A DNA stretch of 64,000 bases from Candidatus Zymogenus saltonus (GTDB lineage Bacteria; Desulfobacterota; Zymogenia; Zymogenales; Zymogenaceae), in contig JAFGIX010000052.1 in the NCBI GenBank assembly GCA_016929395.1, positions 7,151-71,150 on the forward strand. The letters run 5' to 3'. Shown here one piece after another: positions 11,325-59,028 of this stretch. The notes under the pieces were generated by a model, which made no database searches, was not told the origin of the DNA, and saw only the letters and a program-made list of their open reading frames with translations. The position numbers and the translations under genes are program-made. Each line of letters begins with the position of its first letter. Position 1 is the first letter of the stretch.

Positions 11325-11329
11325 GTTAC

Positions 11330-11343: not shown

Positions 11344-11378
11344 TCTATTTGACAAAACGCTATTGAGCCAATTTTAGT

Positions 11379-11475
11379 CCCTCAAGCTGAGGGTGTAGTG
11401 GAAAGATGGGAGTGGTGGCAAAACGGGGTTGGGGCCTTTTGGGGGTGGCAGAACGCTATTGGGGCACTTTCCGTC
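11379..11475 (+). repeat. G-rich repeat tract in lexA leader (GGTGGCARAACG..GGGG units; AACGCTATTG x2; CCCTCAAGCTGAGGG hairpin)
   Basis: direct repeats at 11356-11365 and 11452-11461; hairpin 11379-11393. Confidence 0.6.
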
Positions 11476-11522
11476 CCACTGAGCTTCCAATCAAAGAATT
11501 ACCATTGAAGGAGAATTTCCCT

Positions 11523-12254: not shown

Positions 12255-12326
12255 TGGAATTTCAAAAGAGAGGATGCGGGGCGATGGCCGAACCCAAAAG
12301 CACCGGCCGAGGCCCCAAAAAGATAG

Positions 12327-12578
12327 ATGGTCGTCACGATCGAGGAACAGATAAAGGTGGCCGCCGTCTTCGGCGGGGGAAAGGTGCTGCCGAGGTGGTT
12401 CGTGTGGCGCGGAAAAAAATACACGATAGCCGAGATCACCTACACATGGAAAGACAAGGAGGGAAAAGAAACCCGCCACCACTACGCCGTCACCGACGGC
12501 ATAAACCTCTACGAGCTCTGCTACATGGAGCACGACATGAGCTGGTACCTGGCGTCGGTGGAGATCGAGGGGAGATGA
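12327..12578 (+). CDS. hypothetical 83-aa protein downstream of lexA
   Basis: compact non-low-complexity ORF (MVVTIEEQIKVAAVFGGGKVLPRWFVWRGKKYTIAEITYTW...) in native GC context, co-directional with lexA. Confidence 0.45.
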   Translation: MVVTIEEQIKVAAVFGGGKVLPRWFVWRGKKYTIAEITYTWKDKEGKETRHHYAVTDGINLYELCYMEHDMSWYLASVEIEGR

Positions 12579-12677
12579 GGGGGAATAATCGGATTTATAT
12601 CTTGACATGAGGCAACTGGTGATATTAGACTAAGTTTAAGAAAAAGTTGCTTTATAAGATGTCCAGAGGACTCAATT

Positions 12678-13841
12678 ATGAAAAATCAATACAAAAAGAT
12701 TGAGTTGGAACTTAGAAGGGAACTCAATGGAAAGGAATTAAGTATATTGAAAGACCTTTCCGTTCGAATCCCCGAAGAGGATTTTTTTATAGAGCAAGCA
12801 AATGGCAATATAGTTTTAAACCTGAGAGCGCTGGACTTAAATAGTTTTGAGAGCATGGTTAAGGAATTGTCAACAAGATACCATTTGCAGGAAGATGACA
12901 ATCCGTTCCTTAAGATACGAGACAAGATACTGGCCATTGGAAGCTATGGTATTAAGGGTAAGAAGAGACTTTTTGTAGGTTATAACAAAGAAAGGAAAGT
13001 AAAGGACAGGACAAAAAAGGGAGAAGAAAGAGGCTTACATTACTATGCGATGGACGGAAATTTTAAAAAAAGGAATAATGAATTACCCGATGAATATGTA
13101 AATAGAATCATATGCGATGACAGTGAGGAGTTCCTTAAGCAGCTTCCAGAAAACAGTATCGATTTAGTATTTACCTCACCGCCGTACAATTTCGGCCTCG
13201 ATTACGACTCTGATGAGTCTGAAGATGGAGTGGACTGGCAAAAGTACTTTGATAAGCTTTTTGCGGTTTTTGATGAATGTATAAGGGTTCTAAAATATGG
13301 TGGCAGGATTATTGTGAACATCCAGCCACTTTTTTCCGATTATATTCCAAGTCATCATGTAATAAGTAACTTCTTTATGCAGAAAAAGCTAATCTGGAAA
13401 GGCGAAATCCTTTGGGAGAAAAACAACTACAATTGCAAGTACACCGCCTGGGGCAGCTGGAAAAGTCCCAGTAGCCCGTACCTGAAATACACATGGGAAT
13501 TTCTGGAGGTCTTTTGCAAGGGGACCTTAAAGAAGGAAGGTAAAACCGAAAACATAGATATCACAGGAGATGAATTTAAAAAGTGGGTTGTAAGTAAGTG
13601 GTCGATAGCCCCCGAAAGGAACATGAAAAAGTATGATCATCCGGCAATGTTCCCTGAAGAATTGGCAATAAGGGTCTTGAAGCTTTTTAGCTTTAAAAAT
13701 GACATCGTTTTGGATCCCTTTAACGGGGTGGGCACAACAACTGCAGTCGCAAGAAAGTTGCAAAGGCGTTATTTGGGAATAGATATTTCCGAAGAATATT
13801 GTCAAAGGGCGCAAGATAGAATAGGAGAGACGCTATTTTAA
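12678..13841 (+). CDS. DNA methyltransferase (beta-class amino-MTase, N4-cytosine or N6-adenine), with ~150-aa N-terminal extension
   Basis: DLVFTSPPY (motif IV) followed by DPFNGVGTT (motif I); low-GC island. Confidence 0.8.
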   Translation: MKNQYKKIELELRRELNGKELSILKDLSVRIPEEDFFIEQANGNIVLNLRALDLNSFESMVKELSTRYHLQEDDNPFLKIRDKILAIGSYGIKGKKRLFVGYNKERKVKDRTKKGEERGLHYYAMDGNFKKRNNELPDEYVNRIICDDSEEFLKQLPENSIDLVFTSPPYNFGLDYDSDESEDGVDWQKYFDKLFAVFDECIRVLKYGGRIIVNIQPLFSDYIPSHHVISNFFMQKKLIWKGEILWEKNNYNCKYTAWGSWKSPSSPYLKYTWEFLEVFCKGTLKKEGKTENIDITGDEFKKWVVSKWSIAPERNMKKYDHPAMFPEELAIRVLKLFSFKNDIVLDPFNGVGTTTAVARKLQRRYLGIDISEEYCQRAQDRIGETLF

Positions 13842-13842
13842 A

Positions 13843-14562
13843 TCAAACGTGTTTTCGCAGGATTTCTCTTATCGTGAATACCGCCTTATCTAAATTCTCC
13901 TTTTTCAGAGGTTTGTAAAATTCCGGTATATGTATGGGTTTGTCTACTTTTCTTTCACCTTCCAGTAAAGTAATTATGGTGGGGGTTATATCGAAATGTG
14001 ATATTAAAGTATGAGTCGATGGGCTGCCAAAGGTTACATCCTTTAATTTAGAATAGTCGCCCCCCAACTGACTTTCCAGCTGAATTAGAATCAAATCTAT
14101 ATTCGGATATGCTTCTTTTAATAGCGTAAAGTCAACGAGTATTCTCTTTAACATTGCATTTTCTGTGTACGCCTTGCATTCAATAGCGACAACAAATTTT
14201 TTGTCTATGTGTACATGTAAATCTGTTGAAAGGCCATAGTAGTGTCTTTTTATATTGTCTCTGATATACTGTCGTGTCTCTTCATTTTTTATCTTTTCAA
14301 TGTAATCCTTTTTGATGGGGATTTTTACTTTGCGTCTATCCATAAATATTCTTTCGTCGCTACCCCCTAATGTCTCCCACGCCAAAGACACCATTAAACC
14401 AGCGATTGCTTCCACCAGTTTACCCTTCCCCGCTCTTACTATTCCTCCGTAGGCCCTGTCATCAGAATGTTGCGCTTTTTCATCTATCCCTTTTACAACA
14501 ACTTCGTAGGCCTTGATTGCTTTTTCGATATCTTTTTCAATGCTTTTAAGACTTTCGTCCAT
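13843..14562 (-). CDS. type II restriction endonuclease (PD-(D/E)xK), putative partner of adjacent MTase
   Basis: HVHIDKKFVVAIECKAY = D...ExK catalytic core; convergent, tail-to-tail with MTase; same low-GC island. Confidence 0.6.
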   Translation of the reverse strand: MDESLKSIEKDIEKAIKAYEVVVKGIDEKAQHSDDRAYGGIVRAGKGKLVEAIAGLMVSLAWETLGGSDERIFMDRRKVKIPIKKDYIEKIKNEETRQYIRDNIKRHYYGLSTDLHVHIDKKFVVAIECKAYTENAMLKRILVDFTLLKEAYPNIDLILIQLESQLGGDYSKLKDVTFGSPSTHTLISHFDITPTIITLLEGERKVDKPIHIPEFYKPLKKENLDKAVFTIREILRKHV

Positions 14563-14682
14563 TTGCCTTAACCCCTATTTAAAAGGATAGTGGGTTTGAA
14601 TTATATATCATATAAATAGATATTGTCAAAAAATATGTAAATGAGATAACAACCATTTTGCAGCAACAAAAGGTAACCCCCC

Positions 14683-15969
14683 ATGCCCATCGACCTTGTA
14701 AAGAGCGCGTTCATAACGCCGAAGCTGAAAGGCCGGAAGATCACGGAGAACAGGTGCGTCCTCCATCTCGACATGGACGCCTTCTTCGCCCAGGTGGAGC
14801 AGGCCACGAACCCGGCCCTCAGGGGGAAGCCGATCGCCGTCGTCGGAAGCAAGAAGCGAACCGTCATCGTCACCTCCTCCTACGAGGCGAGAAAAAACGG
14901 CGTCAAGACCGGCATGACCATGGGCGAGGGGATGCGCGCCTGCCCTGAGTTGATTTTAGTTCCCGGAAACAACAGAAAGTACATCGACACGTCGGTAAAG
15001 ATCATGAAGATACTCAAGGAGTTCAGCCCGATGGTGGAGGTCTTTTCCATAGACGAGGCCTTCGCCGACCTGACGGGGTCTTTACGCCTCTTCGGGGGAA
15101 AGGAGGCGATCGGGAGACTCGTCAAGGAGAGAATAAGGGGGGAGCTAAACCTCACCTGCTCGGTGGGGATCGCCCCGAACAAGCTGATAGCGAAGCTCGC
15201 CAGCGACCTGAGAAAGCCGGACGGCCTGGTGATCGTAAACGACGGAGAAGTCCCGGCGCTCCTTGAAGACCTCCCCATCGAGGAGATCTGCGGCATCGGC
15301 AAAAAGATGGGAAAAAAGCTTCGCACCCTGGGGATCGGGACGATGGGGGAGCTCGGGAGATACCCGGCCCAGGTCCTCAAAAAGAAGTTCGGGATAATAG
15401 GGGAGCGCCTCCACTACATGGGCCTGGGCATAGACGAGAGCCCCGTCGTCCCCCTGGGGGACGAAGACCCGGCAAAGAGCATCGGCCACTCGATGACCTT
15501 TCCTGCTGACGTGGAAGAGCGCGAGGATATGAACCGCTACCTGCTGCTCCTCTCCGAGAAGGTGGGGAGAAGGGCCAGAAAACACGGCTGCTCCGGGCGC
15601 ACCGTCTACCTCTACGTCAGGTTCTCCGACTTTACCGGCACAGGCAAGAGGCAGACCGTCAAGAGCCCCGTAAACCTCGATTTCGATATATACTGCGTGG
15701 CGTCGAAGATCTTGGACACCATAGAGATCGAAAGGCCGGTGCGCCTTCTGGGGGTCAGCATCACCAACCTGGCATACAACGGAAAGCAGTTCCCCCTCTT
15801 CACCGGGGAACGCCGAGAATTTCTTCTGACGGACGCCATGGACAGCGTCAAGGACATCTACGGCGAGGACGCCCTGACCTACGCCACCGTGACGCAAAGG
15901 CAGATCGAGGCGGGGGTCATCTCCCCGGCGTGGCGGCCCCAAGGCCCGAGGCGCGTCGATCCCAAATAG
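14683..15969 (+). CDS. dinB: DNA polymerase IV
   Basis: LHLDMDAFFAQVE...KPIAV Y-family polymerase motifs, full length with little finger domain. Confidence 0.9.
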   Translation: MPIDLVKSAFITPKLKGRKITENRCVLHLDMDAFFAQVEQATNPALRGKPIAVVGSKKRTVIVTSSYEARKNGVKTGMTMGEGMRACPELILVPGNNRKYIDTSVKIMKILKEFSPMVEVFSIDEAFADLTGSLRLFGGKEAIGRLVKERIRGELNLTCSVGIAPNKLIAKLASDLRKPDGLVIVNDGEVPALLEDLPIEEICGIGKKMGKKLRTLGIGTMGELGRYPAQVLKKKFGIIGERLHYMGLGIDESPVVPLGDEDPAKSIGHSMTFPADVEEREDMNRYLLLLSEKVGRRARKHGCSGRTVYLYVRFSDFTGTGKRQTVKSPVNLDFDIYCVASKILDTIEIERPVRLLGVSITNLAYNGKQFPLFTGERREFLLTDAMDSVKDIYGEDALTYATVTQRQIEAGVISPAWRPQGPRRVDPK

Positions 15970-36068: not shown

Positions 36069-37592
36069 CTAAAAGACATCCCGATCCAGACTCCTGTACT
36101 GGACCGCCTCGGCCAGATGTGAGGGCGTTATATCTTTTTCACCGCCGAGGTCCGCTATGGTCCTCGACACCTTGATAATTCTCGTGTACGCCCGGGCGGA
36201 GAGGTTCAGCCTGTTCATTACCTTTTCGAGGAAGCCCCTGCACTCGGAAGAGAGTGGTGCAAAGAGCTCCAGGTCCCTCTGGGGCATCCCGGAGTTGAAG
36301 AAGTAGGGGCGATCCTTGAACCTCTCGTACTCTATCTTGCGGACGGCGTTGATCCTGTCTCTGATCGACGCCGAACTCTCGGACGGCTTCTCCGCAAGCT
36401 CCCTGTATTTCACCGCAGGCACCTCGATGTGGATGTCTATCCTGTCCATGAGTGGTCCCGAGATCCTCTGCCTGTACTGCCTGACGCGGTTAAGGTTACA
36501 GGTACACTCGTTGTTTCTATCCCCGAAATAACCGCAGGGGCAGGGATTCATCGCGGCGATAAGCATAAATCGTGATGGATAAGTAATGCTCGTTAAGGCT
36601 CTGGATATAGTAACCTTTCCATCCTCCAGGGGCTGCCGCAGCACCTCGAGGGCGTTCTTCTTGAACTCCGGTATCTCGTCCAAGAAGAGCACTCCGTTAT
36701 GGGCAAGGCTCACCTCCCCCGGATTCGGGATGTTGCCGCCCCCGATGAGCCCCACATCGGATATGGTGTGGTGGGGAGACCTGAAGGGCCTCGTGGCAAT
36801 TATGGGCTTCCCGTCCATCTTTCCCGCGATGCTGTGGATCTTCGTTGTCTCCAGCGACTCCTCGAAGCTCATCTCCGGCAGGATGCTCGACACCCTTTGG
36901 GCGAGCATGCTCTTCCCCGCCCCGGGCGGCCCTATCATGATGAGATTGTGTCCGCCGGCGGAGGCGACCTCGAGAGCCCGTTTTGCGTGGCTCTGGCCCC
37001 TCACCTCCGAGAAATCAACCCCGTACTCCTTGTTCTCGTTGAATATCTCGTCGCGATTTACCCTCTTGGGCGGTATCGAAAGCTCCCCCCTGAGAAAGCC
37101 CACCCCCTCCTCGAGGCGTTTTATCGGTATTACGTCGATTCCCTCCACGAAGGCCGCCTCCTCGGCGTTACCGTCGGCGACCATAATGCCGGAAAATCCC
37201 CCCTCCCTCGCCGCCAGCGCCATAGGCAAAATGCCGTTTATCGATTTCAGGCCTCCATCGAGGGAGAGCTCGCCTACAAGGATATATTTGAGGGGTGTGT
37301 CCTTTGGGATCTCTCCCGAGGCCGCAAGGATGGCGATCGCCATCGGCAAGTCAAACGCCGACCCCTCCTTCTTAATATAGGCGGGGGCGAGGTTGACCGT
37401 AATCTTCTTTTGCGGAAAATCGAATCCTGAATTTTTTACGGCGGCCTTGATCCTGTCCTTGCTCTCCTTTACGGCGGCATCCGGAAGCCCCACGGTGGAA
37501 AAGAGGGGCAAGCCGCCGGCAAGATCAACCTCCACGTCCACAACGTAGGCGTCAATCCCCAAGACCGCGCTGCTCTTTACAAGAGAAAGCAT
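36069..37592 (-). CDS. YifB/ComM family Mg-chelatase-like AAA+ ATPase
   Basis: Lon-like N-domain, Walker A GPPGAGKSM, C-terminal Mg-chelatase domain. Confidence 0.9.
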   Translation of the reverse strand: MLSLVKSSAVLGIDAYVVDVEVDLAGGLPLFSTVGLPDAAVKESKDRIKAAVKNSGFDFPQKKITVNLAPAYIKKEGSAFDLPMAIAILAASGEIPKDTPLKYILVGELSLDGGLKSINGILPMALAAREGGFSGIMVADGNAEEAAFVEGIDVIPIKRLEEGVGFLRGELSIPPKRVNRDEIFNENKEYGVDFSEVRGQSHAKRALEVASAGGHNLIMIGPPGAGKSMLAQRVSSILPEMSFEESLETTKIHSIAGKMDGKPIIATRPFRSPHHTISDVGLIGGGNIPNPGEVSLAHNGVLFLDEIPEFKKNALEVLRQPLEDGKVTISRALTSITYPSRFMLIAAMNPCPCGYFGDRNNECTCNLNRVRQYRQRISGPLMDRIDIHIEVPAVKYRELAEKPSESSASIRDRINAVRKIEYERFKDRPYFFNSGMPQRDLELFAPLSSECRGFLEKVMNRLNLSARAYTRIIKVSRTIADLGGEKDITPSHLAEAVQYRSLDRDVF

Positions 37593-48983: not shown

Positions 48984-51626
48984 TCAGACACAGTCGAAGA
49001 CCTTTTGTATCGCTTCTTCAACCCTGTCGCCGTTCGGGCCTCCGGCCTGGGCCATGTCGGGGCGCCCGCCGCCCTTTCCGCCGACCACCTCCGCCATCTT
49101 CTTTATGATCTCCCCCGCCTTGTATTTGTCGGTGATGTCTTTCGTTACCGAGACGAGGAGGATGGCCTTCCCGCCGGAGTTTGACCCAAGGACCACAATC
49201 CCCTTCTTGAGGCGGTCCTTTACCTTGTCGGAGAACTCCCTTAGGGACTTCGGGTCCATGTCGTCGATCACCCTGGCCACCACCTTTATCCCGTCCCTCT
49301 CTACCGCACTTTCTATCAGGTCTGAGACGGATAGGGTGGACGCCCCGCTCTTGAGCCTCTCCACCTCCTTGGTCAGCGTCTTTACCTGACTCAGGAGCTT
49401 CTCTACCCTCGTCGGGGAGTCCTTAGGGGTCGTCTTCAATAACTCGGTAATCTCCCTGATTATCGCCTCCTCTTCCCTTATATGCCTTACGGCGTTCTCT
49501 CCCGTCACGGCCTCGATTCGCCTGATGCCGGAGGCTATGGAGCCCTCGTGCACTATCTTGAATGTGCCGATCTCCCCGGTGGTGTCGGCGTGGGTGCCGC
49601 CGCAGAGCTCCATGGAGACTCCGGGGATATTGATCGTCCTCACCTCGTCGCCGTACTTCTCCCCGAAGAGGGCAATCGCTCCCGCCTCTATCGCCTTGTC
49701 GTATGGAAGGCTCTTTACGATGACTTCGTGGTTGTTTCTTATCTCCTCGTTTACAATATCCTCGACCCTGTCGAGCTCGTTCTTCGAGACCTGGCCGTAG
49801 TGGGTGTAGTCGAAGCGGAGCCTCTCCGGGGATACGAGGGAACCGGACTGTTTCACGTGGTCGCCCAGGACCTTTCTCAGCGCCGCCTGAAGTAGGTGCG
49901 TCGCGCTGTGGTTGGCCTCCGTTTTTTCCCTTAGGTTCGAGTTTACCTTGAGCGCTGCCTCGTCGCCGACCTTGACCTCCCCTTTCTTGACTATCCCCAT
50001 GTGCACGATGAGGCTTCCGGCCGGATTTTCCGTCCTCACGACCTCGAATAGGGAGGATTTCGTCTCGATTGTGCCGGTGTCGCCGACCTGGCCCCCCATC
50101 TCGGCGTAGAACGGGGTTCTCTCCGTCACTATCCCCACATCATTGCCGTCCTCTCCAGATTTTACCGAGATCACCTTCTTGCCGTCTTTTATAATCGAGA
50201 TCACCTTCGATTTCAGGGAGACCTCGTCGTAACCTTTGAAGGAAGTCCCAAGCCCTTCAGATACGAGCTTCATGTAAACTTCGGCGACCTTCTCGTCCCC
50301 CGACCCCTTCCAGGCGGCCTTGGACTTGTCGCGCTGTTTCGCCATCGCCTCCTCGAAGCCGCCGATGTCTATCTCTATACTCTCCCCCTTGATGATGTCC
50401 TCGGTGAGGTCGAGGGGGAATCCGTAAGTGTCGTAGAGCCTGAAGGCGACATCCCCGGACAGCACTTTTTTCTTTCCCCCCTTTGCCTTTATCTCGTCAA
50501 CCTCTTCGTTTAATATCTTTAGACCCTTGTCCAGGGTCTCGATGAACTTCTCCTCCTCGGCCCTGACCACCGAGGCTATAAAAATCCTGTTCTCCCTTAA
50601 CTCCGGGTAGGCCTCCGCCATGATGTCCACGACAACGTCCGCCACCCTGTACATGAAGGGATCGGAGATGCCCAGGAGCTTTCCGTGTCTCGCGGCGCGG
50701 CGCATGATCCTCCTTAGGACGTATCCCCTCCCCTCGTTTGCCGGGATTATTCCGTCCGCAACCAAAAAGGCCTGGGCGCGGCAGTGGTCGGATATTGCCC
50801 TGATCGAGATGTCCTTTTCGGCGTCTTCTCCGTATTCGGCCCCGGCTATCTCCTCCACGGCAGAGATAATCGGCGTGAAGAGGTCGGAGTCGTAGTTGCT
50901 CTTCACTCCCTGAACAACGGCCGCTATCCTCTCAAGACCCATCCCCGTGTCTATGCTCGGGGCGGGAAGCGGCGTCATCTTTCCCGACTCGTCCCTGTTG
51001 AACTGCATGAAGACAAGGTTCCATAGCTCCAGGTATCTGTCGCAGTCGCACATTCCGATTCCGCACTTGTCCCCGCAGGCCATGTCCTCGCCCTGGTCTA
51101 TGTGGATCTCCGAGCAGGGGCCGCAGGGGCCTGTCTCCCCCATTGCCCAGAAGTTGTCTTTCTCCCCCATCCTGACTATTCTGTCCGCCGTAACCCCTAT
51201 TTTATTCTTCCATATCTCGAAGGCCTCGTCGTCGTCCTTATAAATCGTGATCCAGAGCTTTTCCTTTTCGAGGCCCATGTCCACCGTCAGGAAATCCCAG
51301 CCGAAGAAGATGGCGTCGTCCTTGAAGTAATCGCCGAAGGAGAAGTTCCCCAGCATCTCAAAGAAGGTGTGGTGTCTCGCCGTCACACCAACGTTTTCGA
51401 GGTCGTTGTGTTTGCCGCTTACCCTCAGGCACTTCTGGGAGGACGCGGCCCTGACGAAGTCCAGCTTCTCGTCGCCTGTAAAGACGTTTTTGAACTGGAC
51501 CATCCCGGCGTTTGTAAACAGCAGGGTGGGGTCGGCCTCCGGGACGAGGGACGACGACCGCACCCTCCTGTGCCCGTTATCCTCAAAGTATTTCAGAAAC
51601 TTCTCTCGAATCTCGCTTCCCTTCAT
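48984..51626 (-). CDS. alaS: alanine--tRNA ligase
   Basis: full AlaRS (class II motifs, editing domain HxxxH/CxxxH, C-Ala); start at MKGSEIREKFL. Confidence 0.95.
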   Translation of the reverse strand: MKGSEIREKFLKYFEDNGHRRVRSSSLVPEADPTLLFTNAGMVQFKNVFTGDEKLDFVRAASSQKCLRVSGKHNDLENVGVTARHHTFFEMLGNFSFGDYFKDDAIFFGWDFLTVDMGLEKEKLWITIYKDDDEAFEIWKNKIGVTADRIVRMGEKDNFWAMGETGPCGPCSEIHIDQGEDMACGDKCGIGMCDCDRYLELWNLVFMQFNRDESGKMTPLPAPSIDTGMGLERIAAVVQGVKSNYDSDLFTPIISAVEEIAGAEYGEDAEKDISIRAISDHCRAQAFLVADGIIPANEGRGYVLRRIMRRAARHGKLLGISDPFMYRVADVVVDIMAEAYPELRENRIFIASVVRAEEEKFIETLDKGLKILNEEVDEIKAKGGKKKVLSGDVAFRLYDTYGFPLDLTEDIIKGESIEIDIGGFEEAMAKQRDKSKAAWKGSGDEKVAEVYMKLVSEGLGTSFKGYDEVSLKSKVISIIKDGKKVISVKSGEDGNDVGIVTERTPFYAEMGGQVGDTGTIETKSSLFEVVRTENPAGSLIVHMGIVKKGEVKVGDEAALKVNSNLREKTEANHSATHLLQAALRKVLGDHVKQSGSLVSPERLRFDYTHYGQVSKNELDRVEDIVNEEIRNNHEVIVKSLPYDKAIEAGAIALFGEKYGDEVRTINIPGVSMELCGGTHADTTGEIGTFKIVHEGSIASGIRRIEAVTGENAVRHIREEEAIIREITELLKTTPKDSPTRVEKLLSQVKTLTKEVERLKSGASTLSVSDLIESAVERDGIKVVARVIDDMDPKSLREFSDKVKDRLKKGIVVLGSNSGGKAILLVSVTKDITDKYKAGEIIKKMAEVVGGKGGGRPDMAQAGGPNGDRVEEAIQKVFDCV

Positions 51627-51884
51627 GATCTTAAAACCAAACCTCACTGAAAACTGAAACTTAAAAATAAAACCGGGGAGAACTCCCCAGACCTTGGAAA
51701 TAAGCCTTGTATTTGTAACAAGCTTTTGCCGATTGCTGTTTTAATTAAACCGTTTCGTTATTAGTTTAATATTATAAACGGCTATCTAAAATCAAGTCAT
51801 TTAGATAAATCAAATAACCTAAATGATTTGAACAGTCAATGCCTTCAATCAGGATGTGCAACGGCCGGATCAGCGTGACTATTT

Positions 51885-52090
51885 ATCTACCCCCCTCCCT
51901 ACCCCCAAAGCCTTCAATCCCTTTTTACACCCCGAATTCCACCAGGCCTCTACATGTCCCGCCCCAACCCCCCCAACCTTTCCCCAACCCCCACGACTTT
52001 TCCCCAACCCCCACGACCTTGCCCCAACCCGCCCCAACCTCGTCCCGACTTTACTCTAATATTGGTCAACCCCCCACCAACACCCCTTGC
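51885..52090 (-). repeat. G-rich (minus strand) GGGGTTGGGG-type tandem repeats in alaS 5' leader / recX 3' flank
   Basis: plus strand reads CCCCAACCCCCACGAC.. repeated about 8 times. Confidence 0.85.
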
Positions 52091-52561
52091 TCAGATCCTC
52101 CTTATCGCCTCCTCTATCACTTCCCAGCCGAAGCCCCTCCTCTTGAGCTTTACGATTATCTCCTCCTTGAAACCTTCCTTCAATCCTTCCCCCCTCCCCT
52201 TTTCGATCGACATCCTCTTTTCCACGAACCGCTTCGCCCCTGAAATCTCCCTTTCCAACACATCGGGACTTTCAAGCGCACCGTCCACTATCTCCCTCGA
52301 AACGCCCCTCTTTTGAAGCTCCGCCCTTATCTTCATCTTTCCCCAGGACTTTCTCACGAGCCCGTATTCGAGAAAGCGCTCCGCAAAATCAACGTCGTCG
52401 AGGTATTTATCCTCCTGAAGTCTATGCAACACATTTATCACGGCCCCTTCATCCATTCCCTTTTTTAGCAGCTTGATTTTAAGTTCATATACGCTGTGGG
52501 GGCGCCTGCCGAGGCTTTTTAACGCGGAGTCCAGTACTCTTTCTTCTTCGGCCTGATTCAC
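52091..52561 (-). CDS. recX: recombination regulator RecX
   Basis: three-helix-repeat RecX sequence; GTG start abutting pilT stop. Confidence 0.85.
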   Translation of the reverse strand: MNQAEEERVLDSALKSLGRRPHSVYELKIKLLKKGMDEGAVINVLHRLQEDKYLDDVDFAERFLEYGLVRKSWGKMKIRAELQKRGVSREIVDGALESPDVLEREISGAKRFVEKRMSIEKGRGEGLKEGFKEEIIVKLKRRGFGWEVIEEAIRRI

Positions 52562-53728
52562 CTAAAACCTGTCTATCTTGATCTCTTCATCTCCCCCCTT
52601 GTCCTCGTCCTGCTCGGAGATATCCTTGTCAAACTCGTCCCAGGTGGAATCGCTTGTGGACGAGATCCCCTTGATCCTCAGGGCGAAGTCGTCCGGGTTG
52701 GTGCTCTGGCGCATGGCCTCCTCGTACGTTATCAATCCCCTTCTGAAGAGGAACATCAGGGATTGGTCGAAGGTCTGCATCCCATGGGTGGTATATCCCT
52801 TTGAAATTGCGTCGTGAATCTCCTTTGTCTTCTCCTTGTCGGAGATGCACTCCCGAATAAGTCCCGTCGAGACCAGCACCTCCACGGCCGGGACCCTCCC
52901 CTTTCCATCGGCCCTCGGCACGAGGCGCTGGGAGACAACCCCTTTTAGGATTCCCGCAAGCTGAAATCGTATCTGCTGCTGCTGATAGGGCGGGAAGACC
53001 GAAATTATTCGGGTTATAGTCTCCGTGGCGTCCACGGTGTGGAGGGTGCTCAAGACGAGGTGCCCCGTTTCCGCCGCGGTAAGGGCCGTCTCTATCGTCT
53101 CGAAGTCCCTCATCTCCCCCACGAGGATCGTGTCCGGGTCCTGCCTCAGGGCGCTCTTCAGGGCCCCGGCGAAGTTCTGGGCGTCAAAGCCTATCTCCCG
53201 CTGGTTTATGATGCTCTTCTTGTCTCTGTGAAGAAACTCGATCGGGTCCTCTATGGTCAATATGTGACATGTCCTATTAGAGTTGATATAATCTATCATG
53301 GCGGCCAGGGTCGTGGATTTCCCCGATCCGGTTGTCCCGGTAACAAGGATCAGACCCCTCGGCTCGGACGCTATCTTTTCCAGCACGTTTGGCAGGTTGA
53401 GTTCCTGGACGTTTTTGATCTTTACCGGGATAGAGCGAAGGACGATCCCCAGCGTTCCCCTCTGTTGAAAGACATTGACCCTGAACCTCCCCAGACCAGG
53501 CACCCCGTAGGCGAGATCGACGTCGTTGGAGTCTCTGTACCTTTCCATCTGCTTCTTGTTCATGATGCTTTCCGCCATGCCCGTTATCTCGTCGGGAGTA
53601 ATACGCGGGGCGTTCTTCAGCGGAAACAGGGATCCGTCTATCCTCAACACGGGCGGAAGGCCCACCTTGAGGTGAACGTCGGATGCACCCTGCTTCACGC
53701 CCACTTTCAATATCTCATTTATGTCCAT
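52562..53728 (-). CDS. pilT: type IV pilus retraction ATPase PilT family (with acidic C-terminal tail)
   Basis: GPTGSGKST Walker A, Asp box, His box, AIRNLIRE-like motif (LIRECISD); 14-nt overlap with recA. Confidence 0.85.
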
Positions 53729-54761
53729 CTCCTAACTCCTCCAGTGGTGGTTCGGAAATTCTCTTCTTAAGCCCGTGCTTTTCCAGCACCTTTGACTCTA
53801 TAGTGTCAAAGATGTTTTTGTTTTCCTTAAGAAAGACCCGGGCGTTTTCCCTTCCCTGGCCGATCCGCTCGTCGCCGTACGAGTACCAAGTGCCGCTCTT
53901 CTCTATAAGGCCATCCTCCACCGCCAGGTCCAAGAGATCCCCCTCCTTGGAGATACCCAGACCGTAGATTATATCGAACTCCACCTCTTTAAACGGCGGG
54001 GCTATCTTGTTTTTTACCACCTTGACCTTTGTACGGTTTCCGACAACCTCCTGGCCGTCTTTCAGGGCGCCTATCCTCCTAATGTCGAGGCGTACACTGG
54101 AATAGAACTTGAGGGCGTTGCCACCGGTCGTCGTCTCCGGGCTTCCAAACAAGACGCCTATTTTCATACGGATCTGGTTTATAAATATTACGGATGTCTT
54201 CGACTTGGAGATTGAAGAAGTAAGCTTCCTCATTGCCTGGGACATGAGCCTCGCCTGAAGTCCCATGTGGGAATCTCCCATATCCCCCTCGATCTCGGCC
54301 CTTGGAACCAAGGCCGCGACCGAGTCTATAACCAGCACGTCCACGGCCCCGCTCCGAACAAGGATGTCGGTGATCTCCAGGGCCTGCTCCCCCGTGTCCG
54401 GCTGGGAGATTAACAGCTCTTCCGTGTTGATCCCCAATGCCTTGGCGTATGATATATCGAGGGCGTGTTCAGCATCGATGAAGGCCACAACGCCGCCGAG
54501 CTTTTGGGCCTCGGCTATGATATGGAGGGCGAGGGTCGTCTTGCCGGAGGCCTCCGGCCCGTATATCTCGATTATTCTCCCCCGGGGAATTCCACCCACT
54601 CCCAGGGCAATATCTAGACCGATGGAGCCGGTGGGTATTACCGGCACAGCGGCGATCTCGCCGCCCTCGCCGAGCTTCATTATCGCCCCCTTGCCATACT
54701 GCTTTTCTATCTGAGACAAAGCCAGGTTCAATGATTTCTCTTTTCTCTCATCCAATGCCAT
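53715..54761 (-). CDS. recA: recombinase RecA
   Basis: GPESSGKTT-type Walker A (GPEASGKTT), L1/L2 loops; full length. Confidence 0.95.
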
Positions 54762-54776
54762 AAGAAACCCTCCCGT

Positions 54777-55358
54777 TTATCCAAAGGGGTAATAAAAGAG
54801 GGAGGTGTAAACCGCCCCCGTGGGTCTTAGATCACTCTTGAATAGGTGCAGCCCCGAAACCCGAATATCGCCCAAGATAATATCTTTCATTCCCTCGATT
54901 CTCTCGATCATCCGTCGGTCCGCCCTGCCCTTGACCCTCCCGAGCGTCAGGTGGGGCCTGAAATCCCGATCCTCTCTGGGAAAGCCTATCTTTGAAAATG
55001 TCTCCTCCAGGGAATCCCGTATCGCCCCCAGCCTCTCGATATCACCGTCAAGCCCGACCCATATCACCCTGGCCCCCCTTGACTTATTTCCGCCGGGGAA
55101 GGTCCCCAACTCCTTGACGGTAAGAGATATATCGTCCATCCCCTTAAAACCTGATACCCCCTCCTCCCCCGCCTCGGTTACCTTTTTTAGATCGCCCTCT
55201 TTGACGCTCCCTAGAAATTTAAGCGTCAGGTGAATCGCCCCGGGCCTTACCCACTTCACACCGTCTTCGGGGGATGAGAGCTTTTCTATCAGCTCCCCGA
55301 GTTTTGATCTCATCTCCTCTGTTATCTCCGCTGCAATAAATAGCCTGAGATCAGCCAT
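54777..55358 (-). CDS. thpR: RNA 2',3'-cyclic phosphodiesterase (2H family, ThpR/LigT)
   Basis: two HxTx motifs (HLTLKF, HLTLGR). Confidence 0.85.
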   Translation of the reverse strand: MADLRLFIAAEITEEMRSKLGELIEKLSSPEDGVKWVRPGAIHLTLKFLGSVKEGDLKKVTEAGEEGVSGFKGMDDISLTVKELGTFPGGNKSRGARVIWVGLDGDIERLGAIRDSLEETFSKIGFPREDRDFRPHLTLGRVKGRADRRMIERIEGMKDIILGDIRVSGLHLFKSDLRPTGAVYTSLFYYPFG

Positions 55359-55524
55359 TAATCACCGCTCCACGACTCAATATTAATATCTCCAATAACT
55401 TCAATATCTCTACATCTATCAATATCTTTCCGGCCCCTACCTTGTTTGCCGTCACCGCCTACAATCCCCTGACCCTCATATATTGTAAAACTAATTACAA
55501 AAACAGTCTATAAATATTTGAAAT

Positions 55525-55552
55525 AATCTTCGCGCCAAAAAATCTTCGCGCC
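55525..55552 (-). promoter_or_regulatory. direct repeat AATCTTCGCGCC x2 (16-bp spacing) upstream of thpR-recA
   Basis: two identical 12-mers at 55525-55536 and 55541-55552. Confidence 0.3.
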
Positions 55553-55745
55553 CCCATCATGCTTGGATGAATCGTGAAAACTCCCCTTCCACCGTATCTG
55601 GCTTATCTACAAACTTTTAATCCAATTTCCGACATCTCTGTATTCTCATTTAGCCCGTTCTAAACGCCGTTCTCCTTCAAACTGCTGGGTTTGTGCCACC
55701 CATTTTCACACAAACTTCTTCTCCCCGTTCTCTCCCCTCCGCATG

Positions 55746-57053
55746 CTATCGACTCCACCTCTCCCCCACCTCGGACACCTTCTTTCCGAGGAGACAGCGC
55801 CGGAGCCACTCGAGGGCCATCTCCGACGAGATAAGCCTTATCCTCCCCCTGTCACCGATAAACTTGTATCCCTTTGAGACGACGATCTCGCTCCGCTTTC
55901 GCTTGGCGCCCCGGTCATCGTCGTAGGCCAGGCCGATGAATACCGTCCCCACCGGTTTTTCCTCGGTACCACCGGAAGGCCCGGCGATTCCCGTTATAGA
56001 GATGCCTATATCTGTCTTGGCGCTCCTCTTGACCCCCAGGGCCATCGCCTCGGCGACATCGGAGCTTACGGCGCCCTTCGTCGAGATGAGTACCGGATCC
56101 ACCCCTATAAGGTAGCTTTTTGCCTCGTTGCTGTAGCTCACAATCCCGCTCTTGAAGTAGGCGGAGCTTCCGGGCACTTCCGTGAGCCTCTTGGACAAGA
56201 GCCCCCCGGTGCACGATTCCGACACCGCCAAGGTCAATCCCCCTGTTATGAGCATTCCGGAAACGACCATATCGAGGGTCTCGTCATCCTCGCCGAATAC
56301 CCTCTCCCCGAGCTCCACCCTCATTTTCTTCTCTATCCCCTCCACCAGCTCTTCGGCTCTCTCCATAGATTCTTTGGATCTCGCGGTTATCGTGACGTGG
56401 TTCTCCGGGAATATGGGGAGAAATCCCACCTTTATCCTGTCCCTGTCGTACGGGATATCCTTGACGCGCTCGTAGACCTGGGACTCCGTAAGGCCGAAGA
56501 CCTTGAGCACCTTTTTCGCCACGAAACTTCCCCGCCTCAATCTTTCAGCTATAATCGTCAGCACCCCCTGGTCCATCATCACCGTCATCTCCTCGGGAAC
56601 GCCGGGAAGGACGAACACGTGCTTTTCGTCCTGAAGGATATGGTAGCCCGGGGCCGTGCCCACCGGATTTGTGATCATCTCCGATCCCGCAGGCATAAGG
56701 GCCTGTCTCTCGGCTCCCGGTCCCAGCTTTATCCCCCTTTTTTCGTACTTCGCCTCGATCTGATCGAGGGCTTCCGGGAAGAGGACGAGCCTCAAGCCCA
56801 TTCCCTTGGCCACGGCCTTTGAAGTAATATCATCGGGCGTGGGACCCAAACCTCCCGTCACCACGACCACGTCGGCCCGGGATACAGCTGTCTTCAACGA
56901 TTCGACTATTCTAACTTCATCGTCCCCGACGGTCGTTATTTGAATGGTCTCTATTCCGAATTGGAAGAGCCTGTCCGCGATGAATGTAGCGTTCGTGTCC
57001 GTCACGTGTCCAGAGAGGAGCTCGTTTCCAATGGTGATTATCTCCCCCCTCAA
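55746..57053 (-). CDS. cinA: competence/damage-inducible protein CinA (MoCF-binding + PncC-like deamidase domains)
   Basis: MRGEIITIGNELLSG...; full two-domain CinA. Confidence 0.9.
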   Translation of the reverse strand: MRGEIITIGNELLSGHVTDTNATFIADRLFQFGIETIQITTVGDDEVRIVESLKTAVSRADVVVVTGGLGPTPDDITSKAVAKGMGLRLVLFPEALDQIEAKYEKRGIKLGPGAERQALMPAGSEMITNPVGTAPGYHILQDEKHVFVLPGVPEEMTVMMDQGVLTIIAERLRRGSFVAKKVLKVFGLTESQVYERVKDIPYDRDRIKVGFLPIFPENHVTITARSKESMERAEELVEGIEKKMRVELGERVFGEDDETLDMVVSGMLITGGLTLAVSESCTGGLLSKRLTEVPGSSAYFKSGIVSYSNEAKSYLIGVDPVLISTKGAVSSDVAEAMALGVKRSAKTDIGISITGIAGPSGGTEEKPVGTVFIGLAYDDDRGAKRKRSEIVVSKGYKFIGDRGRIRLISSEMALEWLRRCLLGKKVSEVGERWSR

Positions 57054-57523
57054 AGGGCCCCCCTCACAATGATGACGGCCCAGAGGACGATATTGGTGTA
57101 GACGCCGGCGATCACATCGTCGAGGACCACCCCGATGCCGCCGCCCACCTTTTTATCCACCATGCCCGCGGGATATGGTTTTAAAATGTCAAAGAACCGA
57201 AATACTATAAAGCCAGCCACGAGATACTCGACCGTGTCCGGGATCAGCAACATCGAAACGAGGTAGCCGACTATCTCGTCGATCACGATCTTCTTTGAAT
57301 CGTGCTCCCCGAAGAGGACGTTGGCATCGCCCGATATTTTTACCGCGGCGATCCCGAGAACGACGACCCCGGCTATGTACACGGGAAACCCCCCTAAGTT
57401 CAACAGGAGGCATATCCCGACGCCCAGAAGACTTCCGAAGGTGCCGGGCATAAGGGGGATGTACCCGATCCCCAGGCCGGTCGCGGCGGCCTTTATAAAA
57501 AAATCTTTCACTTTTTGCCGCAA
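57050..57523 (-). CDS. pgpA: phosphatidylglycerophosphatase A
   Basis: GLGIGYIPLMPGTFGSL PgpA signature; ATGA overlap with cinA. Confidence 0.85.
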   Translation of the reverse strand: MRQKVKDFFIKAAATGLGIGYIPLMPGTFGSLLGVGICLLLNLGGFPVYIAGVVVLGIAAVKISGDANVLFGEHDSKKIVIDEIVGYLVSMLLIPDTVEYLVAGFIVFRFFDILKPYPAGMVDKKVGGGIGVVLDDVIAGVYTNIVLWAVIIVRGAL

Positions 57524-57540
57524 TCTCCCATAAAATTATA

Positions 57541-59028
57541 TTAGCAAACGTCATCATTGTCAAGCCGATCCACGACCCTGAGGAAGGCCTCCACGACCCT
57601 GGGGTCGAACTGGGTGCCGGAATTCGACTTTATCTCCTCGATGGTCTTTTCCCTGCCGATCTTCTCCCTGTACGCCCTCGTGGAAGTCATGGCGTCGTAG
57701 GTGTCGGCAACGGCGATTATCCTCGACAGCATTGGTATATCCTCGCCGACAAGCCCCTCCGGATACCCCTCCCCGTTATATCGCTCATGGTGGTAATACA
57801 CTATCTCGGCGATATCCTGAAACTGGGAAATCGGGGCAAGTATATCCCTCCCTATCACCGGGTGAGATCTCATCTCCTCGGACTCTTTCGTGTCCAATTT
57901 CCCGTTTTTATTTAGCACCAACTCGCTTATTCCTATCTTTCCGATGTCGTGCAATATGCCCGCCTGGGCGAGCCTGTCTATTTCCTCCTGGGGAAGGTTC
58001 ATCTCCTTTGCTATTATCAGGGCATATCTCGTTACCCGCTCGGAGTGGCCGCTGGCGTATTTGTCCTTGACGTCCAATGTCTTGGCAAAGCTCTTTACAG
58101 TATCTCCCAGAATATTTACGATATCCTCATAAAGCCTTGCGTTCTCGATGGCCACGGAGACGTTGTTTACGAGGATCATGAGGGATTTCTTGACCCCCTC
58201 GGTAAAAATGAATCCCCTTGTAAAAGAAAATTGGGCAACAAAACCCATCGTTTTTTCTTTTATCCTCATGGGAAGCAGAAGGACCGACTCGACACCGGAA
58301 AGATCCTTAATCAGCTCGTCGAGCTTTTTCAGCTCTTTACCGGCGAAAATCATACCTTCCTTACCATCGATAAAGGAAAGTATCTTTCTCCAATAGATAA
58401 TTTCATTTACCCTGCTGGATATTCCCATATCCTTTGCCTTTACCAGTCTGTATTTATAGTCTTTCATCGACGTGTCCAGGACACAAAAACCGACCGCGTC
58501 GGCCTCCCCCTCTTTAAACAACACATCCACGAACATTGAAAGGACGCTGTCCAGCTGAAGGTTGGAGCTTATGGCCATGCTTATATCATAAAGGGCCATG
58601 GTCTCCTTCAACTCGAGGTTTTCCTTTATCAGCTTCTGCTTTTCTACGGCATGTTCTATTACCCTTAAAAGATCGGAGAACTGGAACGGCTTCATTATAT
58701 AATCATAGGCGCCCTTCTTTATCGCCTCCACGGCGGTCTCGACCGTCGCAAATCCCGTCATCATGATGGTGATTATCTTTACCCTGAGGTTGTTTATCTG
58801 GTACAAAAGTTCCATCCCCCCCATCCTCGGCATCCTCATATCCGTGATGACGAGGTCCGGCGGCTCCCGCCTGATGATATGAAGGGCTTCGATTCCGTCC
58901 TCCGCCGTTTTGATGTTATACCCCTCTCCTTCCAACACATCGCTCAGGATATCTCGGACGCTGAACTCGTCATCGACAACAAGTATGGTGTACTTTCCCT
59001 TGCCGGTTTCCATAAGATCTTGCCGCAT
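57541..59028 (-). CDS. response regulator with REC - GAF-like - HD-GYP domains (c-di-GMP phosphodiesterase type)
   Basis: ILVVDDE...D..MP REC; HD...HHERYNGEGYP HD-GYP motifs. Confidence 0.85.
   Translation of the reverse strand: MRQDLMETGKGKYTILVVDDEFSVRDILSDVLEGEGYNIKTAEDGIEALHIIRREPPDLVITDMRMPRMGGMELLYQINNLRVKIITIMMTGFATVETAVEAIKKGAYDYIMKPFQFSDLLRVIEHAVEKQKLIKENLELKETMALYDISMAISSNLQLDSVLSMFVDVLFKEGEADAVGFCVLDTSMKDYKYRLVKAKDMGISSRVNEIIYWRKILSFIDGKEGMIFAGKELKKLDELIKDLSGVESVLLLPMRIKEKTMGFVAQFSFTRGFIFTEGVKKSLMILVNNVSVAIENARLYEDIVNILGDTVKSFAKTLDVKDKYASGHSERVTRYALIIAKEMNLPQEEIDRLAQAGILHDIGKIGISELVLNKNGKLDTKESEEMRSHPVIGRDILAPISQFQDIAEIVYYHHERYNGEGYPEGLVGEDIPMLSRIIAVADTYDAMTSTRAYREKIGREKTIEEIKSNSGTQFDPRVVEAFLRVVDRLDNDDVC

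Follow-up and report, generated by a model that had tools for sequence, protein, structure and literature searches.

In the E. coli-type cluster, recA is followed by recX and alaS, while in the Deinococcus/Thermus-type operon it is preceded by cinA and ligT. In Geobacter sulfurreducens, a PilT paralog gene, pilT1 (GSU0146), lies between recA and recX, an order conserved in the Geobacteraceae, and is co-transcribed with recA as judged by RT-PCR (Speers et al. 2016, PMC5065972). PilT1 fails to complement a P. aeruginosa pilT mutant, and a G. sulfurreducens pilT1 deletion has no biofilm phenotype (PMC5065972); both results fit an accessory motor that depends on PilT. In Myxococcus xanthus, MXAN_1995 (PilU, 468 aa) is a second pilus retraction motor with a C-terminal disordered region, encoded in the context helicase-rplM-rpsI-pilU-...-recX (Rahman et al. 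2026, PMC13584747). It is required for pilus-dependent S-motility, and pili are still formed in its absence; the protein is polar, its localisation depends in part on the pilus machinery, and a truncation lacking the tail and terminal motif restores motility to a frameshift mutant (PMC13584747). Each organism also has a separate canonical PilT encoded next to pilB and pilC, PilT4 in Geobacter (PMC5065972) and MXAN_5787 in Myxococcus (PMC13584747).

The locus described here lies in a 64-kb stretch of DNA from Ca. Zymogenus saltonus, referred to below as the window, and combines the E. coli-type and Deinococcus/Thermus-type arrangements in the order cinA ... thpR-recA-[pilT]-recX-alaS. Six genes lie head-to-tail on the minus strand, and their ORF coordinates and profile matches bear out the order and identities proposed in the initial annotation, pgpA-cinA-thpR-recA-pilT-recX(-alaS). 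The outermost gene, pgpA (57050..57523, TTG start), encodes phosphatidylglycerophosphatase A (PF04608, 129 bits) and is followed by a full-length cinA (55746..57053, TTG start; NF001813, 431 bits) with three domains (MoCF, KH and CinA). The RNA 2',3'-cyclic phosphodiesterase gene thpR/ligT (54777..55358; TIGR02258, 133 bits) precedes recA (53715..54761; TIGR02012, 561 bits), pilT (52562..53728; TIGR01420) and recX (52091..52561, GTG start; RecX_HTH1 and RecX_HTH2), and alaS (48984..51647, likely start ATG 51626) is the conserved downstream neighbour on the same strand. Relative to these two known arrangements, the window has a pilT paralog inserted between recA and recX, pgpA fused upstream of cinA and a gap of 387 nt between cinA and thpR.

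The junctions around pilT are very tight. The recA TGA (53717-53715) lies within pilT, so that the two genes overlap by 14 nt; a GGAGGAG Shine-Dalgarno site precedes the pilT start codon, ATG 53728, and the pilT TAG (52564-52562) abuts the recX GTG at 52561. Both the overlap and the abutting stop and start had been noted before and are read directly from the sequence, while the spacing between thpR and recA is 15 nt. At the pgpA/cinA junction (cTTTGA), the start codon of cinA, TTG, runs into the stop codon of pgpA, TGA; the overlap reads TTGA, not ATGA as first described. The initial annotation does not mention the AT-rich intergenic gap (55359..55745) that splits cinA from thpR. This gap has neither a convincing ORF nor an Rfam match, and it is only 62 nt in the relative L001. 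Within it lie a tandem 16-nt direct repeat (55552-55521) and a promoter-like site, TAGACT-17-TACAAT (55510-55482), with which a palindrome, TTGTA-N8-TACAA (55500-55483), overlaps. The site may be a second promoter for thpR-recA-pilT-recX, and since the gap holds it, pgpA-cinA and thpR-recA-pilT-recX may be separate transcription units. Just upstream of pgpA, overlapping the 3' end of a response-regulator/HD gene, a minus-strand sigma-70 promoter-like site (57535..57563) matches the consensus TTGACA-17-TATAAT at 12/12 positions. A scan of the minus strand finds no promoter-like or terminator-like site within recA-pilT, nor one separating recA from pilT or pilT from recX; a single weak (9/12) promoter-like match lies near the recX 3' end. 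The tight packing of recA, pilT and recX makes their co-transcription likely. Shortly after recX, the transcribed (minus) strand carries a G-rich tract (51962..52080) with a 20-nt tandem repeat in about four copies (TRF array 51962-52040) and 13 runs of at least three G within 150 nt, which is predicted to be G-quadruplex-prone. A GC-rich minus-strand hairpin followed by a T-run (51673..51690), with an analogous hairpin in L001, lies upstream of the alaS start and could be the recA-operon terminator, an alaS leader attenuator, or both.

The 388-aa product of pilT is a genuine PilT/PilU-family ATPase, as the initial annotation had it, scoring 483.9 bits with TIGR01420 pilT_fam, whose cutoff is 319.1. 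All catalytic motifs are kept, and an alignment of 28 members of its clade shows no variation at the residues of the Walker A (GTTGSGKS), Asp box, Walker B and His box. The AIRNLIRE motif is reportedly required for PilT function in P. aeruginosa (Aukema 2005); in the window protein its position is taken by LIRECISD, a replacement that counts against the retraction role favoured below. The acidic C-terminal tail ends in KIDRF. The tail motif is present in 59/80 complete clade proteins across phyla, as [ILVM][EDQ][RK][FY] in 45 and as the Acidobacteriota form F[ED][FILV] in 14, and its presence shows no correlation with having recX (Fisher p = 0.38) or recA (p = 1.0) as a neighbour.

Across the whole ATPase, the protein is 48-52% identical to solved PilT structures and is nearer to these than to gammaproteobacterial PilU (40-41%). 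Canonical PilT of P. aeruginosa (3JVU), G. metallireducens (PilT4, 6OJX) and Aquifex (2GSZ) has the same two-domain architecture, length class and catalytic boxes, with 48-51% identity and E-values of 1e-100 to 1e-111, but differs in its Walker A (GPTGSGKS), in having AIRNLIRE where the window protein has LIRECISD and one extra residue, and in GMQT(L/M)(D/N) in place of GMQTFDQ. The window protein is further set apart by its added acidic tail, by a gene located away from pilB/pilC and by its separate clade. P. aeruginosa PilU (9N32) shares GMQTFDQ and the absence of AIRNLIRE, and it too is extended at the C-terminus, where acidic residues occur and RF stands close to the terminus (...DDDPAGRRFR). 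Gammaproteobacterial PilU has the same proposed role, that of an accessory retraction motor; its Walker A is GATGTGKS. The best match among solved structures is T. thermophilus PilT (PDB 5FL3; 383 bits, 52% identity), which has the same longer variant of the AIRNLIRE region (YVRELLKDEEKT versus 12 residues); its Walker A is the canonical GPTGSGKS, and the crystallised chain lacks the acidic tail.

For phylogeny and synteny, 82 loci encoding the closest relatives were compared with the window. In neighbour-joining trees all of them, together with the window protein, are monophyletic in 100% of 300 bootstraps and separate from both canonical PilT and gammaproteobacterial PilU, so that this copy does fall outside the motility PilT, in a clade of its own, a point the initial annotation had raised. 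T. thermophilus PilT is the sister of this clade in 85% of bootstraps, and gammaproteobacterial PilU joins it in only 9%. Internally the clade branches along phylum lines; on these trees it is a distinct, vertically inherited group of predicted hexameric PilT-family ATPases. It contains the recA/recX-flanked Geobacteraceae loci, with PilT1 as the G. sulfurreducens counterpart, and M. xanthus MXAN_1995. The M. xanthus authors group MXAN_1995 with other PilU proteins (PMC13584747), whereas the simple trees used here do not, and the label PilU therefore rests on function and not on orthology. Since G. sulfurreducens itself is outside the locus sample, its equivalence to the window protein rests on gene context (recA-pilT-recX-alaS in both), on clade membership, with Geobacter/Geomonas/Pelobacter recA+recX loci 62-69% identical to the window protein, and on the published pilT1 primers (PMC5065972), which encode MELNDIL... 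and ...IEKF* and match the clade N-terminal consensus and tail motif. The window differs in its 14-nt recA/pilT overlap and in having thpR directly upstream of recA; among Desulfuromonadia, thpR is detected in only a few loci (L017, L057), none of them of the Geobacter type. The M. xanthus locus in the sample (L014) fits the description of MXAN_1995 (Q405; helicase, rplM and rpsI upstream, recX downstream). Its protein and that of the window are 71% identical over residues 1-372 and have in common the GTTGSGKS variant, the AIRNLIRE replacement and the terminal motif (DDDFQIERF versus EEIKIDRF). Unlike in the window, rplM-rpsI and not recA is upstream, recX is about 730 nt downstream and does not abut pilT, and the disordered tail has about 112 aa compared with about 35 aa.

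Across these loci, the complete recA-pilT-recX order is present in 36/69. Directly upstream of pilT, recA is present in 45/75 evaluable loci (from the 82); downstream, recX directly follows in 54/76 (56/76 by a more sensitive search) and alaS is found in 57/74. The loci come from Desulfuromonadia, Nitrospirota, Acidobacteriota and Myxococcota, and recA-pilT-recX(-alaS) is present in 14/14 Desulfuromonadia loci with both flanks readable and in 7/7 Nitrospirota loci. The relative L001, whose PilT is 84% identical to that of the window, has an identical nine-gene order. Acidobacteriota keep pilT-recX-alaS, with pilT and recX paired in 10/14 loci and recA not adjacent. Where recA is lacking in Myxococcales and Acidobacteriota, rplM-rpsI or an aminotransferase lies upstream of pilT, and comEA, comEC, dprA and pil genes are absent among the conserved upstream neighbours checked. 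The arrangement had been called unusual, but in Desulfuromonadia and Nitrospirota it is where this ortholog group normally lies, and it has been published for Geobacteraceae since 2016; judging from gene order, the clade had this context ancestrally in several phyla. Since the position is normal and already published for one conserved PilT paralog, this locus is one more instance of a known arrangement.

Two distant genes are as first named by their sequence motifs: a ComM/YifB-type Mg-chelatase ATPase on the minus strand (36069-37592), and a plus-strand ORF (554-979) with an N-terminal methylation (pilin) motif and a sigma-54-like TGGTATGTCTTTTGCA upstream. They lie 15 kb and 51 kb from the recA cluster in separate transcription units, with many other-strand housekeeping genes between. 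The window holds no further pil or com genes; canonical pilT, pilB, pilC and pilMNOPQ are not found in it, and comEA, comEC, dprA and pil genes are missing in or beside the recA-pilT-recX cluster. The suggested co-regulated module for DNA uptake and recombination is not supported by this layout. Nor is the suggested DNA-damage (SOS) inducibility: the window carries its own lexA with a palindrome at the lexA promoter, and no copy of this palindrome or of the Geobacter LexA box lies near the recA operon, a weak negative.

Pilus-dependent motility in M. xanthus (PMC13584747), not transformation, is the only experimentally characterised function in the clade. The window protein is probably the local ortholog of PilT1 (GSU0146) and PilU (MXAN_1995) and probably an accessory ATPase for type IV pilus retraction; inherited synteny would account for its co-expression with RecA and RecX. 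By analogy with the M. xanthus genetics it would be a PilU-like accessory retraction motor of a type IVa pilus, its hexamer sitting at the cytoplasmic base of the pilus machine, probably alongside a canonical PilT, where ATP hydrolysis would pull pilin subunits back into the membrane. The partner machine is assumed, not seen, since the window has none of its canonical genes. Placement in the recA operon would lead to co-expression with RecA and RecX, and the simplest reading is an ancient insertion of pilT into the widespread recA-recX-alaS cluster, retained since. An unlikely alternative is that the recA-embedded paralog retracts a pilus or pseudopilus that imports DNA into the periplasm, with a fixed proportion to RecA and RecX that lets incoming ssDNA recombine, a coupling on which Speers et al. 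2016 (PMC5065972) also speculated. Tight recA-pilT-recX packing kept in Desulfuromonadia, Nitrospirota and other former Deltaproteobacteria fits such a coupling, as do the pilT-recX pairing that survives without an adjacent recA, comM and the pilin-like gene elsewhere in the window, and the lack of a detectable pilus or biofilm phenotype for PilT1. PilT is also reportedly needed for transformation in Neisseria (Wolfgang 1998). However, competence and pil genes are missing around the cluster and among the upstream neighbours checked in recA-lacking relatives, comM and the pilin gene are distant and separately transcribed, and the one phenotype reported for a clade member concerns motility. To our knowledge, natural competence is not established for the taxa concerned. 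Furthermore, alaS is kept in the cluster equally strongly, and we know of no functional tie between alaS and recombination; with pilT likewise read as a retained insertion, its placement does not argue for a machine dedicated to DNA uptake and recombination.

Two other readings were considered. We give little credence to the window protein being the main or only retraction motor of the organism: its complete catalytic motif set, its greater similarity to PilT than to PilU and the absence of a second pilT in the window are in favour, but the view covers 64 kb of the genome, Geobacter and Myxococcus each have a separate canonical PilT besides the paralog, and PilT1 is no substitute for P. aeruginosa PilT. 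It is more doubtful still that the PilT-like hexamer works away from the pilus, recruited to RecA filaments, RecX or DNA, with the conserved acidic tail, which ends in [IV]-[ED]-[RK]-[FY], used as a docking peptide much like the C-terminal tail of SSB. Persistent recX adjacency, the lack of conservation of AIRNLIRE, the spread of the tail motif across phyla and the failure of PilT1 to power retraction in P. aeruginosa can be cited for this role. Against it stand the polar position of M. xanthus PilU, its partial reliance on pilus assembly proteins and its requirement for pilus-driven motility, the function of the truncation that lacks tail and motif, the missing correlation between tail motif and recX or recA adjacency, and the whole-length similarity to bona fide PilT motors. 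The accessory retraction motor, inherited in place, is thus preferred. Even so, the gene order, held over four phyla and including Acidobacteriota pilT-recX without an adjacent recA, is conserved more strongly than inertia usually yields, and a functional link outside this explanation may lie behind it.

The 388-residue protein encoded between recA and recX at 52562-53728 (-) belongs to the PilT/PilU family of ATPases. It matches TIGR01420 with 483.9 bits (cutoff 319.1), residues 3-347 aligning with positions 2-343 of the 343-position model, and it scores only ~155 bits with the PilB and GspE models, whose cutoffs exceed 600. The protein is of the short form: its T2SSE domain starts at residue 3, and it lacks the extra N-terminal part of the assembly ATPases PilB and GspE. 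Walker A (G131-TTGSGKS-T139), the Asp box (E160-DPIE164), Walker B (D199...G204-E205) and the His box (H223/H230) are invariant in an alignment of 28 members of its clade. Since the TIGR01420 score is above the cutoff and the catalytic residues are all present, the PilT-family identity proposed in the initial annotation holds, and the alternative of a non-PilT AAA ATPase fails. An identity of 48-52% to PilT proteins of solved structure leaves no doubt about the PilT fold; an AlphaFold2 model made from the 28-sequence alignment was poor (mean pLDDT 58, pTM 0.45) and was not used. The database entry MBN1573563.1 (Candidatus Zymogenus saltonus; Deltaproteobacteria, Ca. Zymogenia) is identical to the window protein.

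In trees built by neighbour-joining only, with 300 bootstraps, the window protein and its closest relatives from 82 loci form one group in 100% of the replicates, which places them, as had been raised earlier, in a clade separate from the motility PilT. The branching within the clade follows phylum, as expected from vertical inheritance, and its sister is the PilT of T. thermophilus (5FL3), with 85% support and 52% identity. Canonical-type PilT, represented by four sequences (three solved structures and a second PilT-like ORF from the Acidobacteriota contig L059), forms its own group in 69% of the bootstraps. Between the clade and canonical PilT (of P. aeruginosa, Aquifex and, as PilT4, G. metallireducens) the identity is 48-51%. 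It falls to 40-41% with PilU of P. aeruginosa and with another PilU-like structure, and these two join the clade in only 9% of the bootstraps, which speaks against orthology with the gammaproteobacterial PilU. As references, the P. aeruginosa PilT sequence is identical to PDB chain 3JVU, and that of PilU was checked against chain 9N32.

Sequence motifs also distinguish the clade from canonical PilT. Walker A reads GTTGSGKS in the clade and GPTGSGKS in canonical PilT, while the AIRNLIRE segment of canonical PilT is (L/V)IRECIxDKEKT in the clade, the window segment being one residue longer; GMQTFDQ is a further clade signature. The canonical gene lies beside pilB and pilC, whereas the window gene lies beside recA and recX, and neither pilB nor pilC was found within the 64-kb window. 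The window protein is thus not the canonical motility PilT: it has no AIRNLIRE, falls in a separate clade and has no pilB/pilC neighbours. Two tandem PilT-family genes are present on the L059 contig; the product of the first (12-1031), ~42% identical to the window protein, groups with canonical PilT, and the second (1179-2288) belongs to the recX-linked clade.

Two members of the clade are known from experiment. The pilT1 gene of G. sulfurreducens (GSU0146) has recA and recX on either side (Speers et al. 2016, PMC5065972), an arrangement kept in other Geobacteraceae, and RT-PCR showed, within the clade for this species only, that it is co-transcribed with recA (PMC5065972). A P. aeruginosa pilT mutant is rescued by PilT3 and PilT4 and not by PilT1, deletion of pilT1 leaves biofilm formation unchanged, and a DNA-uptake role for PilT1 was offered by Speers et al. 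as speculation (PMC5065972). The published pilT1 cloning primers encode MELNDIL... and ...IEKF*, in agreement with the N-terminus and the tail motif of the clade (PMC5065972). The other member is MXAN_1995 of M. xanthus, named PilU, which is needed for the pilus-dependent S-motility, with pili still assembled (Rahman et al. 2026, PMC13584747). This protein is found at the cell poles, in part dependent on the pilus machinery, and has a disordered C-terminal region of ~112 residues; a stop at Q405 that deletes this region gives motility back to a frameshift mutant (PMC13584747). The gene context is DNA helicase, RplM, RpsI, PilU, RecX and BamD (PMC13584747). Within the clade, genetic evidence for retraction activity and for its dependence on PilT comes only from M. 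xanthus.

The M. xanthus locus among the relatives, L014 (strain AM003), encodes a 471-residue protein with 71% identity to that of the window and a Gln at position 405; helicase, rplM and rpsI lie upstream and recX ~730 nt downstream. Its gene context and Q405 identify L014 as MXAN_1995. A canonical PilT, considered because of the 71% identity, is ruled out for this locus by the helicase/rplM/rpsI neighbours, the length of 471 residues, the Pro/Ala-rich tail and Q405. The window protein is monophyletic with the recA/recX-linked PilT of Geobacteraceae and with MXAN_1995 (100% of 300 bootstraps; 62-72% identity), and its gene has the recA-pilT-recX-alaS order found in this group. Clade, context, tail and primer matches together make the window gene an ortholog of both Geobacter PilT1 and Myxococcus PilU. 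Our literature search found no paper that links the two.

Past the conserved core, members of the clade carry a net-acidic tail with a median length of 28 residues. Among the matches listed, 45 of the 80 complete proteins have [ILVM][EDQ][RK][FY] within the last 12 residues, and 14 more, from Acidobacteriota, have an SPFEF-type variant. The C-terminus of the window protein (tail at 52562-52670), KIDRF, fits the motif; other examples, among L003-L082, are DDDFQIERF in Myxococcota, IEKY or IEKF in Geobacter and KIERFGK in Nitrospirota. P. aeruginosa PilU ends in ...DDDPAGRRFR. The motif is associated neither with recX adjacency (Fisher p = 0.38) nor with recA adjacency (Fisher p = 1.0). The M. 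xanthus PilU tail has been called myxobacteria-specific (PMC13584747); unlike that description, the terminal motif is spread far wider than the myxobacteria.

The gene order around pilT was compared by scanning one genome per species for the best 80 PilT matches (60-72% identity), with neighbour genes found by tblastn and recX by an iterated RecX profile; the counts describe the closest relatives only and not the outer limit of the clade. Among the matches listed, recA lies directly upstream of pilT on the same strand at 45 of 75 evaluable loci (median spacing 58 nt), recX directly downstream at 54 of 76 (56 by a more sensitive pass) and alaS downstream at 57 of 74. Both recA and recX are present at 14/14 loci of Desulfuromonadia and 7/7 of Nitrospirota among these matches. 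The Acidobacteriota loci listed have recA adjacent in none and keep pilT-recX(-alaS) in 10 of 14, and most Myxococcales loci listed have rplM-rpsI upstream, with recX near or adjacent. At eight loci without an adjacent recA, a housekeeping gene takes its place upstream: a branched-chain aminotransferase-like ORF in the Acidobacteriota L035, L046, L050, L051 and L069, and rplM-rpsI with a UvrD-like helicase in the Myxococcales L005, L010 and L014. None of the eight has a pilus gene there. Closer to the window, L001, from the same family and with a PilT of 84% identity, repeats the window's order of nine genes, and the more distant L002 (73%) has thpR-recA-pilT-alaS. The recA/recX/alaS neighbourhood is the site of this pilT ortholog group in at least four phyla. 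The initial annotation had called recA-pilT-recX unusual; with pilT flanked by recA and recX at 36 of 69 loci among the matches listed, and the Geobacteraceae case published in 2016, that description has to be dropped.

In the window, pilT is part of a run of nine head-to-tail minus-strand ORFs (60336 to 48984), identified with Pfam and NCBIfam. The run begins with a gene for a LarC-like nickel insertion protein, and a response regulator with an HD domain is encoded upstream of pgpA (57523-57050); then come three-domain cinA (57053-55746), thpR/ligT (55358-54777), recA (54761-53715; TIGR02012, 561 bits), pilT (53728-52562; TIGR01420), recX (52561-52091) and, as the last ORF, alaS. The gene order of the proposed pgpA-cinA-thpR-recA-pilT-recX operon is correct, with every ORF on the minus strand and every domain identity upheld, and so is the tight packing around pilT: recA runs 14 nt into pilT before its stop, and the pilT TAG abuts the recX GTG with no nucleotide between, as read from the sequence. 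The pilT ATG is preceded by a GGAGGAG ribosome-binding site, and thpR and recA are 15 nt apart. Two details of the operon claim need correction, since the pgpA/cinA junction, given as ATGA, is TTGA (TTG start, TGA stop), and an AT-rich gap of 387 nt between cinA and thpR (55359-55745) was overlooked. At this locus the PilT-type ATPase gene is intact, fits tightly between recA and recX, and occupies the place that is ancestral for its clade.

The cinA-thpR gap contains a promoter-like TAGACT-17-TACAAT, a tandem 16-nt direct repeat, GGCGCGAAGATT(T/A)TTT, at 55552-55521, and a perfect palindrome, TTGTA-N8-TACAA; the palindrome shares bases with the -10 of the thpR promoter-like site and may be a regulator binding site. 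In L001 the gap is only 62 nt. A small-ORF search of the 387 nt gave nothing convincing, and Rfam gave no hit anywhere in the window at gathering thresholds, nor in 51500-57700 even at E-values up to 1. A perfect TTGACA-17-TATAAT at 57535-57563 (-) overlaps the final codons of the response-regulator/HD gene; with only ~12 nt between it and the TTG of pgpA, either the leader is very short or the start codon is further downstream. With promoter-like sites upstream of pgpA and in the cinA-thpR gap, the six genes may be transcribed as one unit or as two. From thpR to recX, the sole consensus match on the coding strand is a weak (9/12) promoter-like site near the recX 3' end, and the sequence scan revealed no terminator-like sites. 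Judging from this absence of promoter-like and terminator-like sites and from the 14-nt overlap, pilT and recA are likely to be co-transcribed here.

Just past the recX stop, at 51962-52080 (-), the transcribed strand carries a G-rich tract (53% G; 13 runs of at least three G within 150 nt) with ~4 copies of a 20-nt tandem repeat (TRF array 51962-52040); GGGTTGGGG is found 4 times in the tract. The tract is G-quadruplex-prone; G-rich sequence follows recX also in L001 and not in the other ~50 loci. Close to the alaS start, on its upstream side, is a GC-rich hairpin followed by a T-run (51673-51690, -); a promoter-like ATGACT-18-TATAAT precedes it at 51771-51800 (-), and L001 has a comparable hairpin ahead of alaS. 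The hairpin of the window may terminate the recA operon, act as an attenuator in the alaS leader, or do both.

The initial annotation had joined the cluster with comM (36069-37592) and a pilin into a co-regulated uptake and recombination module, possibly inducible by DNA damage. Both genes are real. The pilin-like ORF (554-979, +) is isolated, has a pilin-type N-terminal methylation motif and is preceded by a sigma-54-like -24/-12 element, TGGTATGTCTTTTGCA, at 487-502 (+); no other pilus genes are near it. The module itself is not supported, since comM is 15 kb and the pilin-like ORF 51 kb from the cluster. Among the genes in between, on the opposite strand, are the ATP synthase operon, parAB, yidC, mnmE and purL, and no further pilus or competence genes, including comEA, comEC and dprA, occur within the 64-kb window. 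The window has its own lexA (about 11524-12254), in a locus (11406-15969) where it is followed by a 118-residue ORF that no Pfam family matches and by genes for an N6/N4 DNA methyltransferase and for a Y-family polymerase. Within 11300-11530, the palindrome CCAACaccaGTTGG comes after a promoter close to consensus, and GRCARAACGCTATTGRGSC occurs as three direct repeats in the lexA leader, the number expected by chance being 0.13. No good copy of this lexA-promoter palindrome, CCAAC-N4-GTTGG, occurs near 55359-55745 or 57524-57600, and the direct repeats are absent from the upstream regions of the recA operon. The LexA box of Geobacter, GGTT-N10-AACC, which may not be that of this host, occurs 0 times in the window. 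SOS control of the recA operon is unsupported by these searches.

The window protein is probably an accessory type IV pilus retraction ATPase, co-expressed with RecA and RecX through inherited synteny; the co-expression is suggested by the operon position of pilT. The inability of Geobacter PilT1 to stand in for the PilT of P. aeruginosa agrees with such an accessory role. That the protein should instead be the main retraction motor of Ca. Zymogenus saltonus has a slim chance, and a role away from the pilus is more improbable still, next to the S-motility phenotype and polar location of M. xanthus PilU. A role in DNA uptake coupled to recombination, to which the position beside recA and recX first pointed, is unlikely, because no com or pil genes are co-located and comM and the pilin-like ORF are distant. 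We know of no link between alaS and recombination, and since alaS is kept in the cluster equally well, gene order alone is weak evidence for a functional tie. A wider proposal would make the whole clade a DNA-uptake retraction motor, with RecA/RecX co-expression marking unrecognised natural transformation in Desulfobacterota, Nitrospirota, Acidobacteriota and Myxococcota and with the C-terminal [IV]-[ED]-[RK]-[FY] as a docking or regulatory link to recombination proteins; we consider it quite doubtful. What stands of the original interpretation is the PilT-family protein, its distinct clade and its likely co-transcription; its rarity and its place in a DNA-uptake module are not supported.

The locus is a new example of the arrangement published for Geobacteraceae in 2016, and no new kind of system. 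What keeps it of interest is how widely the synteny extends, and the link between Geobacter PilT1 and Myxococcus PilU, which joins two separate literatures, on "PilT1 in the recA operon" and on "PilU, the second retraction motor", around one ortholog group. Genetic tools exist for both G. sulfurreducens and M. xanthus, so that the transformation, recombination and DNA-damage phenotypes of pilT1 and pilU mutants are directly measurable. The question is thereby sharpened to why a pilus retraction ATPase has been kept beside recX, and usually recA, across such evolutionary distances.
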